A stretch of 34,379 nucleotides of DNA from a virus (lineage: Duplodnaviria > Heunggongvirae > Uroviricota > Caudoviricetes), in the IMG/VR virus record IMGVR_UViG_2778261181_000004, one strand, 5' to 3'. A program made the translations under genes and the position numbers. The notes beneath the pieces are model-generated. The model saw only the letters and a program-made list of their open reading frames with translations. It did not search any database and had not been told where the DNA came from. The stretch's first letter is position 1. Each line of letters begins with the position of its first letter. Of this stretch, positions 8,592 to 12,619 are shown one piece after another.

Positions 8592-9218
8592 CTAGAGTTC
8601 GTATTGAACTCCTTTGACTACACCAATGATGAGGCAATTACCATTGATCGGGATGTTGGGGTACCGGGGATTTAATGGCACTAAAAACTTTTGAGGGCCA
8701 TCGATAACTAATTTTTTTACTGTGGCTTCGTTTGTTCCATCAAGTCTAGCGATGACTATTTTTCCATGCCGGGGTTCTGCATCAGGATCTACAATCACTG
8801 TTGCGCCTTCTGGTATTGTTGGGAGGCCGTTAGGGTTAGTCATGGAGTCGCCTTTAACCTCCAATGCAAATGAGTTATCACCAATCTTTAATGATGTATC
8901 TACCCACTTGTCTACTTCACTAAACACTTCTGCTGTCCTGCACTCAGTAAACTGCCCAGCCTGAACCCACGAGATTACAGGAACTCTGCGCATGTTTGTG
9001 ACGAGTTTGCCTTCAAACTCCGCACCATAAAGAATGTAATCTATTGACGTATTGAAGAACTTCGCTAATTTTGAAAGTGCTTCCCCACCAGGGACATTGA
9101 TGTCTTTCTCCCAGTACCCCACAGCAACGTCACTTACTCCACAAAATTTACCCAATTCTTTCTGGGACGTTCTGGTAACTCTTCTCAGAGCTTTTATACG
9201 CTGACCAACCGTTTCCAT
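8592..9218 (-). CDS. cI-like prophage repressor (N-terminal HTH plus C-terminal S24 LexA-like autopeptidase domain)
   Basis: N-terminal HTH (QKELGKFCGVSDVAVGYWEK); C-terminal domain with GDSM active-site Ser motif; divergent from a cro-like gene. Confidence 0.85.
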   Translation of the reverse strand: METVGQRIKALRRVTRTSQKELGKFCGVSDVAVGYWEKDINVPGGEALSKLAKFFNTSIDYILYGAEFEGKLVTNMRRVPVISWVQAGQFTECRTAEVFSEVDKWVDTSLKIGDNSFALEVKGDSMTNPNGLPTIPEGATVIVDPDAEPRHGKIVIARLDGTNEATVKKLVIDGPQKFLVPLNPRYPNIPINGNCLIIGVVKGVQYEL

Positions 9219-9315
9219 AGGAGCACCATTTCTTTAATTACTAAGTAATCTTAGTTTTTATTGACCTAAGATAGATTGATAATTAACATCTAATAAAACT
9301 TAGTTTGGAGGGCAT
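9219..9315. promoter_or_regulatory. Right operator/promoter region (oR / pR / pRM analogue)
   Basis: Inverted repeat ACTAAGTAATCTTAGT at 9240-9255; CTTAGTT copies at 9250-9256 and 9299-9305; candidate -35 TTGACC (9261-9266) and -10 TAACAT (9284-9289); GGAGGG RBS before the cro-like ATG. Confidence 0.5.
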
Positions 9316-9516
9316 ATGACGACTGACGATATCGAAAGCTACTTCGGCAGCATTGAGAAAGTTGCTGCTTTTTTCGGCATAACAACTGAAGCCGTTTATC
9401 AGTGGCGAAACCGTCCTGGCCAGTTAATTCCAAAAGGACGTGCAGCAGAGGCTGCATATAGAACTTGCGGACGGTTGCCATTTAAACCTGAGCTTTATGA
9501 AAAATCTAATGGATAA
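9316..9516 (+). CDS. Cro-like transcriptional regulator (YdaS-type)
   Basis: 66-aa HTH protein divergent from the repressor; GGAGGG RBS 4 nt upstream. Confidence 0.75.
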   Translation: MTTDDIESYFGSIEKVAAFFGITTEAVYQWRNRPGQLIPKGRAAEAAYRTCGRLPFKPELYEKSNG

Positions 9517-9553
9517 ATCGATTTACAGAAACCACAGATATGAGGGCTTAAAC

Positions 9554-10138
9554 GTGGGTAAAGAACCTGAATGGAAAGTTGATAAGCAACCAGCATGGCT
9601 GGTGGCAGCAATACGAAGAACGATTGCTGATTTACCTCATGGCTATGAGGAAGCAGCAGAAATTCTTGGTTTGTATAAATCTGATGATATCACCCCAGCA
9701 AAAGATCAATTGCATAACAGACTGCGTAGCGGTGGGGATCAAATTTTTCCACTTGAGTGGGCCATGGTTTTACAGGATGCCAGTGGTACCAGGCATGTAA
9801 CGGATGCAATAGCCCGTCGTAGTAATGGGGTGTTTGTGCCGCTGGTGGTCATTGATGACATTGACAATGGTGACATTAATCAGCGGCTGATGGAGTCAAT
9901 AGAATGGATTGGCAAGCATTCCCAGTACTTACGCAAGGCAACTGCTGATGGAGTTATTGACCAAGCTGAGCGTGAGCAAATCGAAGAGAACAGCTACCAA
10001 GTAATGGCGAAGTGGCAGGAGCATTTAACACTGTTATTTCGTGTTTTTTGTGCGCCGGAAAAGAGTAACGCCCGCGAGTGTGCAGCTCCGGGCGTCGTGG
10101 CGTCGATTGCTTCTGGTTGTGGAGAAACTAACGCATGA
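9554..10138 (+). CDS. CII-like regulatory protein (phage CP76 / YdaT-type family)
   Basis: Immediately downstream of the cro-like gene; preferred start GTG 9554 with GAGGG RBS 8 nt upstream (alternative ATGs at 9497 and 9509; ORF-track start 9440 overlaps cro). Confidence 0.6.
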
Positions 10139-10473
10139 ACAGTTTAACAACACACTACCGTCGTTCGCAACTGATTGCGCTTCCTGTACCGGGTGGAAAA
10201 GCGAAGGTGGAATATTGCTATGCAGTGAATGTACCAGGTGACAGGGAAATTGTAACCCACAGCTTTGCAGAGTGGGCTGTGGGTGATTTCAACCGGCAGA
10301 AGGAGACAGTCCTTTGCGACAAGTTAACCGCTGGTTCAAAGATCACTACGGAGTGCCCGTCAGAGTCATTCGTTGGGAGCCGGAAACACAACGGGTTATC
10401 TACCTCCGTGAAGGCTATGAACATGAGTGCTTCAGCCCGCTCGAACAGTTTCGTCGTAAATTCAGGGAAATAG
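10135..10473 (+). CDS. Hypothetical protein between the cII-like and O-like genes; C-terminal third may be out of frame
   Basis: ATGA overlap with the upstream stop; ends 10 nt before the O-like start; a second frame (TTG 10314, AAGGAG RBS, to 10526) encodes more protein-like sequence. Confidence 0.4.
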
Positions 10474-10482
10474 AGGTCGGTC

Positions 10483-11475
10483 ATGAGCCTGTTAATGACA
10501 TCCCAGCCCATTGTGATAAATCGTGATCTTGCATGCCGTATTGGTCTGAATGAGGCAATTGTGTTGCAGCAGCTTCATTACTGGCTGAATGAAACGAATT
10601 CCGGCACTGAGCATGGCGGAATTCGCTGGGTTTATAACACGACAGAACAGTGGCTGGAGCAGTTTCCGTTCTGGTCAGAGTCCACTCTGAAACGCACATT
10701 TGCAAGCCTGAAATCACTTGGGGTTTTGCGTCGCGAGCAACTCAATAAATCGAAGCGTGACATGACCAACTTCTACACGATCAACTATGAAAGTGAGCTT
10801 CTAGAAGAGGTCAAAGTGAACGAATCCATCAGGTCAAAATGCACTTCTCCATCGGGTCAAAGTGACCTGATGGATGGGCGCAAAATGACACGATCCATTG
10901 GTTCAAAACGACACGCTGTCATCGGGTCAAAATGGCCCAATGATCTTACAGAGAATACAACAGAGATTACTACAGAGAATAAAACCTCTTCTCGTCCGGA
11001 CGCTTCGCAACCGGACACGCAGATGGCTGAACAGGATTTTTTAACTCGCCATCCTGATGCGGTTGTATTCAGCCCTAAAAAGCGCCAGTGGGGAACGCAG
11101 GATGATTTGACCTGCGCACAGTGGCTCTGGAAAAAAATCATCGCTCTGTACGAGCAGGCCGCCGAATGTGACGGCGAAGTGGTACGTCCTAAAGAACCGA
11201 ACTGGACAGCCTGGGCAAACGAAATTCGCCTGATGTGTGTACAGGATGGGCGTACTCACAAACAAATCTGCGAGATGTACAGCCGCGTCAGCCGCGATCC
11301 GTTCTGGTGCCGTAACGTGCTCAGCCCGTCGAAGCTGCGGGAAAAATGGGATGAGCTTTCCCTGCGCTTATCGCCGTCCGTCAGCACGCACACAGAAAAA
11401 CGCGAAGACCCGTACTTCAAAGCCAGTTACGACAATGTGGACTACAGCCAGATCCCGGCAGGATTCAGGGGGTGA
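10483..11475 (+). CDS. Replication initiation protein, lambda O-like, with the origin embedded in the gene
   Basis: Position after the cII-like gene; internal iteron array and adjacent AT-rich tract; AGAGG RBS. Confidence 0.7.
   Translation: MSLLMTSQPIVINRDLACRIGLNEAIVLQQLHYWLNETNSGTEHGGIRWVYNTTEQWLEQFPFWSESTLKRTFASLKSLGVLRREQLNKSKRDMTNFYTINYESELLEEVKVNESIRSKCTSPSGQSDLMDGRKMTRSIGSKRHAVIGSKWPNDLTENTTEITTENKTSSRPDASQPDTQMAEQDFLTRHPDAVVFSPKKRQWGTQDDLTCAQWLWKKIIALYEQAAECDGEVVRPKEPNWTAWANEIRLMCVQDGRTHKQICEMYSRVSRDPFWCRNVLSPSKLREKWDELSLRLSPSVSTHTEKREDPYFKASYDNVDYSQIPAGFRG
10805..10940 (+). repeat. Origin iterons: about six direct repeats of a GGTCAAA(A/G)TG-type core
   Basis: Cores at about 10809, 10830, 10855, 10878, 10901 and 10925 (spacing 21-25 bp), followed by an AT-rich ACAGAGA-repeat tract at 10941-10990. 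Confidence 0.6.
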
Positions 11476-11477
11476 TC

Positions 11478-11966
11478 ATGAGTCTTTTGAATGAAGCTCA
11501 GAAATTCATTGAAGCCCATCCGGGGTGTACTTCCGGAGACATTGCGGATGCTTTTGCAGGTTACTCACGGCAGCGCGTTCTGCAGTCAGCAAGCAAGTTA
11601 CGTCAGAGTGGGCGTGTGGCTCACCGTTGTGAAGGAGATACACGCAGACATTTCCCACGCCTGACTGAGAGAGCGCAGGAGCCGGAACCACAACCAGTTC
11701 GTGAAACCAGACCTGTGCGCAATTTCTATGTCGGCACTAACGATCCCCGGGTGATTTTGTGCCTGACCCGCCAGGCTGAAGAACTGGAGTCCAAGGGCTT
11801 ATACCGTCGTGCTGCAACCGTGTGGATGGCGGCATTCCGTGAAAGCCACTCCCAGTCAGAACGAAACAATTTTCTGGCGCGCCGTGAGCGGTGCTTACGG
11901 AAAAGCAGCAAGCGCGCTGCATCGGGTGAAGAGTGGTATCTGTCAGGGAATTACGTGGGGGCTTAA
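11478..11966 (+). CDS. YfdN-like protein; C-terminal region resembles PerC/ANR-type regulators (tentative)
   Basis: ATG 11478 after AGGGGGTG, overlapping the O-like stop; C-terminal LTRQAEELESKGLYRRAATVWMAAF motif; sits where lambda P would be. Confidence 0.5.
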   Translation: MSLLNEAQKFIEAHPGCTSGDIADAFAGYSRQRVLQSASKLRQSGRVAHRCEGDTRRHFPRLTERAQEPEPQPVRETRPVRNFYVGTNDPRVILCLTRQAEELESKGLYRRAATVWMAAFRESHSQSERNNFLARRERCLRKSSKRAASGEEWYLSGNYVGA

Positions 11967-12619
11967 TGAGTAATAAATATTGCCAGGCGCTGGTGGAACT
12001 GCGGAACAAACCAGCCCATGAACTGAAGGAAGTGGGCGATCAGTGGCGCACGCCGGACAACATTTTCTGGGGAATTAACACCCTGTTTGGCCCGTTTGTT
12101 CTGGATCTGTTCACTGACGGTGATAACGCCAAATGTGCCGCGTATTACACGGCGGAAGATAACGCGCTGGCGCATGACTGGTCAGAACGTCTTGCGGAGC
12201 TTAAAGGTGCTGCCTTTGGTAATCCCCCATACAGCCGCGCCAGTCAGCATGAGGGGCAATACATCACCGGCATGCGTTACATCATGAAACATACCAGTGC
12301 CATGCGTGATAAGGGCGGGCGCTATGTTTTCCTGATCAAAGCTGCCACCAGCGAAGTGTGGTGGCCGGAAGATGCGGACCATATTGCTTTTATTCGCGGG
12401 CGTATTGGTTTTGAACTGCCTGCCTGGTTTATCCCGAAGGATGAGAAGCAGGTGCCGACAGGAGCTTTCTTCGCTGGTGCTATTGCTGTTTTCGACAAGA
12501 CCTGGAAGGGACCGGCAATCAGCTACATCGGGCGCGATGAACTTGAGGCATGTGGTGAAGCCTTTCTGGTGCAGGTTCGCCAGCAGGCGGAAAAACTGGT
12601 CAGGGAGATGGCAGCATGA
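11966..12619 (+). CDS. Phage Dam-like N6-adenine DNA methyltransferase
   Basis: Catalytic NPPY motif (FGNPPYS); TAATG overlap with the upstream stop; typical nin-region location. Confidence 0.75.
   Translation: MSNKYCQALVELRNKPAHELKEVGDQWRTPDNIFWGINTLFGPFVLDLFTDGDNAKCAAYYTAEDNALAHDWSERLAELKGAAFGNPPYSRASQHEGQYITGMRYIMKHTSAMRDKGGRYVFLIKAATSEVWWPEDADHIAFIRGRIGFELPAWFIPKDEKQVPTGAFFAGAIAVFDKTWKGPAISYIGRDELEACGEAFLVQVRQQAEKLVREMAA

Follow-up and report, generated by a model that had tools for sequence, protein, structure and literature searches.

Overlapping ymfM and DUF4222 reading frames upstream of the replication gene of an e14-like lambdoid prophage

In the Rz/Rz1 spanins of phage lambda, the inner gene lies out of frame within the outer gene and both are translated; both overlapping peptides are functional, and their products interact. 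In viral overprinting, the younger of two superimposed frames is compositionally biased and its product disordered, while in tightly packed operons neighboring genes are translationally coupled by termination-reinitiation, for example at ATGA overlaps or across short spacers between a stop and the next start. Here we describe a locus that resembles each of these systems in part. It lies at positions 10135-10526 of a 34,379-nucleotide stretch of DNA from a virus of the Caudoviricetes (IMG/VR record IMGVR_UViG_2778261181_000004; the whole stretch is referred to as the window), where the open reading frame (ORF) ymfM and a gene of the DUF4222 family overlap directly upstream of a replication gene. 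We consider it highly likely that this segment holds two authentic protein-coding genes in different frames and not one broken gene.

Products of both families have been studied before. YmfM (b1148) of the e14 prophage of Escherichia coli K-12 was proposed to be the cell-division inhibitor SfiC (Ansari et al., bioRxiv 10.1101/2020.11.19.390815). The assignment is based on the filamentation and loss of Z-rings that follow expression of the ymfM ORF from pBAD24 (bioRxiv 10.1101/2020.11.19.390815) and on the lower SOS filamentation of a ymfM deletion in a delta-sulA background; an earlier library clone, D1-8E, carries ymfL(142-185), ymfM and ymfN(1-92). RgdR (ECs1581), from prophage CP-933C/Sp7 of enterohemorrhagic E. 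coli (EHEC) O157:H7, is described in the accessible parts of two reports as an activator of LEE1 and the type III secretion system and a repressor of motility (PMC3378721; PMC10877973), and in those of the former as a protein that binds DNA with low affinity (PMC3378721).

Databases already contain each of the two ORFs, and nesting or overlap of genes is familiar in phages. What is new, according to the searchable literature, is that both frames of a very common E. coli prophage locus are shown to be maintained, that a gene named as a cell division inhibitor contains a gene of the RgdR family, and that selection acts on the frame and the stop position of the ymfM tail and not on its sequence.

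Layout and identity of the two genes

The features of the locus on which the analysis is based are the following.

9554-10138, plus strand: ymfL, a YmfL-family cII/CP76-like regulator (NCBIfam NF041471, E=1.3e-53; Pfam Phage_CP76)
10135-10473, plus strand: ymfM, 112 amino acids (aa), orthologue of K-12 e14 b1148
10135-10313, plus strand: part of ymfM outside the overlap, with a conserved N-terminal domain of about 60 aa
10300-10305, plus strand: AAGGAG, Shine-Dalgarno (SD) sequence of the DUF4222 gene, 8 nt before the TTG, as read from the sequence
10314-10526, plus strand: DUF4222 (PF13973) gene, RgdR-like, 70 aa, TTG start, in frame +2 relative to ymfM
10314-10473, plus strand: overlap segment, encoding DUF4222 residues 1-53 and, in the other frame, ymfM residues 60-112
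10471-10473, plus strand: ymfM stop TAG, made of DUF4222 codon 53 (ATA) and the first base of codon 54
10474-10482, plus strand: 9-nt spacer AGGTCGGTC between the ymfM stop and the replication-gene ATG, giving GAGG together with the stop
10483-11475, plus strand: replication-initiator-like ("O-like") gene, annotated as Primosomal protein I or hypothetical, in the ymfM frame

The DUF4222 gene shares 160 nt with ymfM and 44 nt with the replication gene. An earlier note on this DNA had placed the start of the ORF 10135-10473 at the stop of the cII-like gene, and we indeed find the ymfM ATG at 10135 overlapping the ymfL TGA at 10136-10138 (ATGA), with GGAG at 10121-10124. Its second frame, starting at TTG 10314 behind AAGGAG and running 44 nt into the O-like gene, was likewise confirmed by the sequence.

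The frame that begins at this TTG matches the Pfam family PF13973 with 66.5 bits against a cutoff of 27 (E=1.5e-18), residues 2-53 aligning to profile positions 3-52 of 53, and its product also matches phrog_1343. RgdR, the one characterized member of the family, scores 82 bits on PF13973 and is 43% identical to the window family over a 47-residue core (hhalign probability 96.9%). By homology, the frame 10314-10526 is a complete DUF4222 gene related to the EHEC regulator RgdR. Among 15 homologues, 23 columns are invariant. A start codon is present in all 59 distinct DUF4222 start contexts (ATG in 37, GTG in 18 and TTG in 4) and aligns with the beginning of the Pfam domain, and an SD-like motif lies 5' of it in nearly all of them, among them 40 of the 41 distinct start contexts of subfamily 1, that of the window. 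Across loci, the frame is closed by a stop located 0-117 nt (mostly 18-54 nt) upstream of the start; in the window this stop is the TGA at 10284-10286, 27 nt upstream of the TTG. Judged by its conservation and start signals, DUF4222 is a gene in its own right.

These upstream stops also bear on the idea that ymfM gives rise, by programmed -1 frameshifting and in a regulated manner, to a second product in which its N-terminus is fused to DUF4222. In favor of it, such shifts are known from phages, DUF4222 is read in the -1 (+2) frame with respect to ymfM, and a local hairpin can form around the SD and the TTG. However, the closing stop lies 27 nt upstream of the TTG in the window and 0-18 nt upstream of the start in other loci, once directly before the ATG, so that a conserved shift site would hardly fit, if at all. 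Moreover, a heptamer of the form X XXY YYZ is absent from 10287-10314, the fold around the DUF4222 start has a z-score of -1.05 and no Rfam match, and the independent start and SD of DUF4222 are conserved. We consider this mechanism highly improbable.

AlphaFold2 models the DUF4222 protein with confidence as a small, SH3-like beta-barrel, with a predicted local distance difference test (pLDDT) score of about 90 in the core. Searched against the PDB with Foldseek, the model retrieved only generic small beta-barrels (Spt5 KOW, Tudor, SH3 and KorB-C; best E=0.016), which suggest an SH3/KOW/Tudor-like fold class but no function, and a sequence search of the PDB with the DUF4222 profile gave no match. 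DUF4222 proteins of the window type are 59-86 aa long, and their C-terminus is variable and disordered because the gene ends 11-92 nt inside the replication gene, depending on the locus.

The YmfM of the window is about 96% identical to a cluster of 112-aa YmfM proteins, and its match to phrog_1170 covers positions 1-112 of 112 (E=5e-70). DNA searches match the e14 region of K-12, where this ORF, likewise of 112 codons, is annotated as b1148, "cell division inhibitor YmfM". These matches identify the ORF 10135-10473 as ymfM, in an e14-like lambdoid prophage. YmfM itself matched neither a Pfam nor an NCBIfam family. Its first 55-60 residues, with the motif MNSLT..Q..LP..GG..Y..NHSF.EWAVGD, are conserved in homologues down to 34-45% identity, and the rest is variable and of low complexity. 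An exhaustive HMMER search found stand-alone relatives of this N-terminal domain (YmfM-N), of 59-68 aa, that end just past EWAVGD. In a prophage of Entomohabitans teleogrylli (KQ947383.1; locus L122, 2501-2737), a 78-aa gene for the YmfM N-domain persists where DUF4222 has been deleted save for a C-terminal remnant of about 12 residues (RERFKRVDR*), and the ymfM frame there ends 11 nt into the replication gene. Nucleotide diversity along 10135-10313 is 0.185 at the third ymfM codon position, against 0.097 and 0.106 at the other positions. AlphaFold2 assigns residues 1-66 a beta-beta-beta-alpha-alpha arrangement with moderate confidence (pLDDT 58-76) and models residues 68-112 as a disordered tail (pLDDT <50).

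As a side observation, residues 19-51 of YmfM (encoded within 10135-10332) gave weak matches, in multiple stretches, to giant proteins with Listeria-Bacteroides repeats (Flg_new, PF09479); one example from the exhaustive HMMER search, P0210, has 13 stretches that match YmfM. A Pfam scan of YmfM itself gave no Flg_new match, and the similarity may be either a repeat-driven artefact or a remote clue to the fold.

The locus is common, and its annotation is split, giving either ymfM or DUF4222 but not the two together. The 339-nt region is present at >=95% identity in 2,005 of 5,426 complete E. coli genomes (~37%), and among the matches listed, the Prokaryotic Genome Annotation Pipeline (PGAP) gives DUF4222 and ymfL under this region, not ymfM. 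In the almost identical prophage of AR_0085, PGAP annotates the exact TTG ORF as a DUF4222 domain-containing protein (WP_001250270.1) and no ymfM. Phage records have it the other way around, with ymfM annotated and DUF4222 not. K-12 MG1655 carries an intact 59-codon DUF4222 ORF with a TTG start inside ymfM (locus L001, 1747-1926, corresponding to NC_000913.3 1204001-1204180); its reference annotation lists ymfM only, leaving the DUF4222 ORF without a feature.

Selection on the two frames

For the analysis of selection, loci were gathered by DUF4222 homology alone, so that the sample is unbiased with respect to the ymfM frame. A species-level set of 39 loci, one genome per species, covers Citrobacter, Enterobacter, Kosakonia, Kluyvera, Pantoea, Raoultella, Atlantibacter, Leclercia, Phytobacter and other genera, and 80 more loci were taken from viral contigs. 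In all, 120 loci gave 81 distinct subfamily-1 core sequences; with the second subfamily described below, the sample amounts to about 140 distinct loci from many Enterobacterales.

All 39 species-level loci have the ymfM frame (+1 to DUF4222) open from a start farther upstream and the other frame closed. In these loci its stop lies at +160 from the DUF4222 start, or at +163 or +166 where DUF4222 has one or two extra codons. In 80 of the 81 distinct sequences the frame is open with the stop at the same aligned position, and the frame at +2 relative to DUF4222 is closed in 79 of 80. When the synonymous codons of DUF4222 were reshuffled with the window's own codon usage, the ymfM frame was expected to be open with a mean probability of 0.054 (range 0.013-0.158), and the remaining frame with 0.006.

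The two frames differ in what is conserved. Diversity in the overlap, counted by DUF4222 codon position, is 0.188 at the third position compared with 0.042 at the first and 0.024 at the second, and DUF4222 has a mean pairwise amino acid identity of 0.95, compared with 0.79 in the ymfM tail. DUF4222 is thus selected for its sequence, while the ymfM tail is selected only for being open. Purifying selection on both overlapping peptides, as expected of a pair of the Rz/Rz1 type, was not found, since sequence conservation is confined to the DUF4222 frame.

Selection for openness is most evident in the choice of DUF4222 codons. A stop in the ymfM frame can arise only from a DUF4222 codon NTA followed by A or G, or NTG followed by A. 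At the DUF4222 positions where this danger exists (4, 18, 28 and 43, and also 16 if AGR comes next), only codons ending in T or C are used, for example CTT/CTC/GTT, GTC/GTT or CTC/CTT; the occurrence of both pyrimidines indicates that these sites do mutate. Unconstrained residues behave otherwise, Val14 being GTG or GTA in 27 of 49 cases and Leu31 being CTG in 37 of 65. Counted per site, purine-ending codons are missing at 4/4 danger sites and at 0/13 control four-fold sites (Fisher p=4e-4). The end of the tail is preserved in a similar manner: DUF4222 codon 53 is always NTA (ATA 58, TTA 7, CTA 1, GTA 1), whether it encodes Ile, Leu or Val, and, with the purine that follows, it keeps the ymfM stop as TAG or TAA.

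The single exception among the 81 sequences (IMGVR_UViG_2563366891_000011, L049) carries a silent change of DUF4222 codon 4, from GTT to GTA, that makes a TAA at ymfM codon 64, leaving a YmfM of 63 aa and DUF4222 intact. Other natural truncations are represented by phrog_20047, a separate PHROGs family of 63 aa, and by several clusters of 63-100 aa.

It could be argued that DUF4222 is the only gene here, the ORF at 10135 being spurious and 10135-10313 a leader or intergenic sequence. Consistent with this, PGAP annotates DUF4222 alone in the RefSeq E. coli genomes among the matches listed, ymfM belongs to no Pfam or NCBIfam family, and its tail is disordered and of low complexity. Yet the N-terminal 60 aa are conserved in homologues of about 40-60% identity, including the stand-alone forms of 59-68 aa and the gene of the prophage that has lost DUF4222. 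The excess of third-position diversity in 10135-10313, together with the ATGA overlap and the GGAG motif, speaks for translation of the frame, and the avoidance of stops in the tail would be inexplicable if the frame were untranslated. We therefore regard this alternative as very unlikely; on these grounds, ymfM is a gene in its own right and not a spurious frame. The comparison shows selection acting on the sequence of DUF4222, on that of the ymfM N-domain, and on the openness and the end-point of the ymfM tail.

The same data account for what the earlier note had observed. The C-terminal third of the first ORF is serine-rich and of low complexity, as it had said: residues 60-112 contain 11 Ser in 53 residues, and Ser plus Thr make up 28% of the tail, compared with 12% of residues 1-59 and 4% of the DUF4222 frame. 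The tail is Ser/Thr-rich, variable and disordered because it consists of DUF4222 codons spelled in the +1 frame. The second frame, which the note had called more protein-like, encodes a complete DUF4222 and is the better conserved of the two (0.95 against 0.79). Both impressions arise because two genes overlap. The note had left three options, and two genuinely overlapping small genes is the one that stands, while a pseudogene or frameshifted gene and a sequencing error do not. The alignment to homologues that it had proposed finds both frames kept and the second to be the better conserved protein, and conservation of the 10135 frame alone, which it had named as contrary evidence, is clearly not what is observed.

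The options that fell share one premise, namely that a single ancestral gene was split by a frameshift, real or introduced by sequencing, and that the true product is a fusion of the YmfM N-terminus to DUF4222. Such fusions do exist in a few database proteins (P0030, P0052, P0058, P0065, P0090, P0150 and P0165). However, they are rare, with 1-14 member sequences against 1,295 in the 112-aa YmfM cluster, and their junctions differ, which fits sporadic indels or errors of assembly. The two-frame form predominates, far more often than chance would allow: it is found in 80 of 81 subfamily-1 sequences and 56 of 58 subfamily-2 loci, and the identical layout occurs in 2,005 complete E. coli genomes and in many genera. 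In addition, DUF4222 has its own SD and begins at its own ATG, GTG or TTG aligned to the Pfam domain start, and ymfM and DUF4222 each occur apart elsewhere. A broken gene is accordingly an explanation so improbable as to be hardly credible.

The replication-gene junction and the surrounding sequence

Among 41 distinct junction types, 38 have exactly 9 nt, usually including AGG or GAGG, between the ymfM stop and the replication-gene ATG; a spacer of 6 or 18 nt is seen in the remaining three. The replication gene is in the ymfM frame, and the downstream replication genes show at least five unrelated N-terminal sequence types. Since ymfM overlaps DUF4222 and DUF4222 overlaps the replication gene, each tail is the beginning of the next gene read out of frame. 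Homology to e14 of K-12 and to most other prophages ends at about 10488, a few bases past the replication-gene ATG, and together with the TAG-9 nt-ATGAGC arrangement shared by unrelated replication genes, this marks a boundary of mosaic recombination between modules. From its geometry, the ymfM stop with its 9-nt spacer and ATG is a probable termination-reinitiation junction.

A second subfamily of DUF4222, 40% identical to the window protein, was reached through 117-aa YmfM homologues. Its proteins have 55 aa, start with GTG or ATG and score 63 bits on the Pfam profile; 74 viral loci gave 58 distinct sequences. The ymfM frame is open across the entire DUF4222 gene in 56 of these 58 loci, for which randomization gives P ~0.067. 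All 4 true danger sites use pyrimidine-ending codons only, against 1 of 16 controls; the corresponding p=0.004 was computed with a fifth site included (GTG followed by G) that cannot yield a stop. The 55-aa DUF4222 of this subfamily lies wholly inside ymfM, whereas that of the window runs 53 nt past the ymfM stop, its Pfam domain remaining inside. The junction also has another design, in which the TGA of DUF4222 overlaps the ATG of the replication gene and the ymfM stop comes 11 nt farther on. Both frames still end at the start of the replication gene.

We propose that ribosomes would be loaded at the ymfL/ymfM border through ATGA coupling, and that the ymfM tail would act as a conduit that carries them across the embedded DUF4222 gene to the start of the replication gene. 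Released at the ymfM stop, they would translate the replication gene by termination-reinitiation, so that the early-right operon would be kept continuously translated and the expression of the replication gene would be coupled to that of ymfM. Internal initiation at its own SD and TTG (or GTG in several lineages) would supply DUF4222, at a level of its own that is probably lower. The nested layout itself probably derives from a tandem arrangement of ymfM-N and DUF4222 through loss of the ymfM stop, with tandem and single-gene forms persisting.

Several points weigh against this proposal or against the strength of the data. We found no ribosome-profiling or proteomic data for either product in the window, and the conduit as the reason for the open tail is an inference. 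Because the sequences share ancestry, counting them exaggerates their independence, and tests made per site are the conservative choice. Nesting is absent from the two DUF4222 loci that diverge most: in L201 (969-1650) the genes are in tandem, a short ORF of the YmfM-N type stopping 11 nt after the DUF4222 ATG, and in L199 (1426-1665) DUF4222 directly follows cro without ymfL or ymfM. These layouts are probably ancestral-like. The natural truncations of ymfM imply that the tail is not indispensable, and the tail peptide itself could matter, for example as a disordered linker or a degron.

This last point can be put as an alternative, in which the tail is open because its peptide is functional, as a Ser/Thr-rich linker, a degron or an interaction region in division inhibition, and not for the delivery of ribosomes. 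The open frame is indeed under selection, the length of the tail is nearly constant, and the sole reported ymfM phenotype comes from a full-length clone. Nevertheless, the tail is poorly conserved and is altered by every synonymous DUF4222 substitution, there are stand-alone members of the YmfM family without it and naturally circulating truncated forms, and its end meets the replication-gene start in two different junction designs. We thus see a functional tail peptide as a tentative possibility, somewhat doubtful.

The locus belongs to the early-right region of a lambdoid prophage, with the following neighbors.

8592-9218, minus strand: CI/LexA-like repressor gene
9316-9516: Cro-like gene
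11472-11966: PerC-like gene, overlapping the stop of the replication gene

The gene order ymfK-ymfT-ymfL-ymfM is common to the window prophage and K-12. The ymfL start at 9554 is the PGAP start carried over from AR_0085; the longest ORF there begins at 9440. In the AR_0085 record, the ORF after the PerC gene is annotated as "LexA repressor" (11933-12619 in the window), and loci related to the window carry a LexA_DNA_bind gene farther downstream. A scan of 9200-10700 for promoters and terminators found nothing beyond the pR-like site expected near 9261 and weak terminator-like hairpins no stronger than background, and an Rfam scan of 9000-11000 at E<=1 gave no match. A 6-bp hairpin (10299-10316) can form between GAAGGA, which belongs to the DUF4222 SD, and UCCUUU, which extends over the TTG's first two bases; it was dropped as a candidate regulatory element on account of its z-score of -1.05 and of a pairing not evident in other lineages. 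An antisense ORF of 97 aa (10218-10511, minus strand) spans the whole overlap, is codon-aligned with DUF4222 and is open in 63 of 67 homologues. We rejected it as a gene, as synonymous randomization already predicts an open frame at P=0.57-0.73; it is a passive by-product that looks to be open because DUF4222 has few Leu and Ser codons.

Comparison with known systems

The overlap has consequences for the constructs on which the SfiC assignment is based. The ymfM ORF in pBAD24 and the clone D1-8E both carry the DUF4222 SD, the TTG start and at least 53 of the 59 codons, and the deletion of ymfM removes both genes. The searchable ymfM literature treats ymfM as a single gene, with no mention of DUF4222 or of the overlap, and among its published constructs and deletions no frame-specific mutant is described and none separates the frames. 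It is nonetheless unlikely, in our judgment, that DUF4222 is the cause, whole or partial, of the SOS filamentation ascribed to ymfM, the sfiC locus known for 40 years, or that this filamentation needs both products; the pBAD24 design favors ymfM translation, and filamentation is not mentioned for RgdR in the accessible passages of PMC3378721. On such a reading, the 3' half of ymfM would be kept solely as a translated conduit to the start of the replication gene.

If both genes are expressed, K-12 has an unannotated RgdR-family protein inside a named cell-division inhibitor gene, and the assignment of SfiC to the YmfM polypeptide requires frame-specific confirmation. The locus is also a clean natural case in which selection on the openness and the end-point of a reading frame is seen apart from selection on amino acid sequence, and it bears on the origin of overlapping genes and on the coupling of replication-gene translation in the early operons of phages.

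Compared with e14 of K-12, the window has an orthologous ymfM in the same synteny, while the downstream replication module differs past about 10488. RgdR and the window DUF4222 are both small basic prophage proteins encoded directly 5' of a replication gene and overlapping its start; in the Sakai genome, ECs_1581 (RgdR; L204, 28305-28604) overlaps the primase gene ECs_1582 by 4 nt. This suggests that DUF4222 genes are linked by position to prophage replication genes in general. RgdR differs in its length of 99 aa, in extensions at both termini, in an RGD motif, at whose aligned position the window protein has VNR, and in lying upstream of the primase in a P4-like element, where the neighboring annotated gene has no overlap onto it. 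An RgdR-like regulatory activity of the e14-type DUF4222 is putative.

The locus resembles Rz/Rz1 in that a lambdoid outer gene harbors, in another frame, an inner gene equipped with an SD and a start of its own. It differs in that the overlapped part of ymfM shows maintenance of the frame only, without sequence conservation, and in that the inner gene of the window extends 53 nt past the outer one, into a third gene; we know of no interaction between YmfM and DUF4222. As in overprinting, the frame that rides on the other, the ymfM tail, is Ser/Thr-rich, variable and predicted to be disordered, and the tandem and stand-alone forms suggest extension by loss of a stop. Here, however, selection is on the openness of the frame and on a stop position beside the next start, an indication of a role in translation and not of a new function of the protein. 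The closest likeness in this respect is to translational coupling, with the ATGA at ymfL/ymfM, the stop, 9-nt GAGG-containing spacer and ATG at the replication gene, and the TGA/ATG overlap of the second subfamily; the difference from known cases is that ymfM would traverse an entire embedded gene in another frame.

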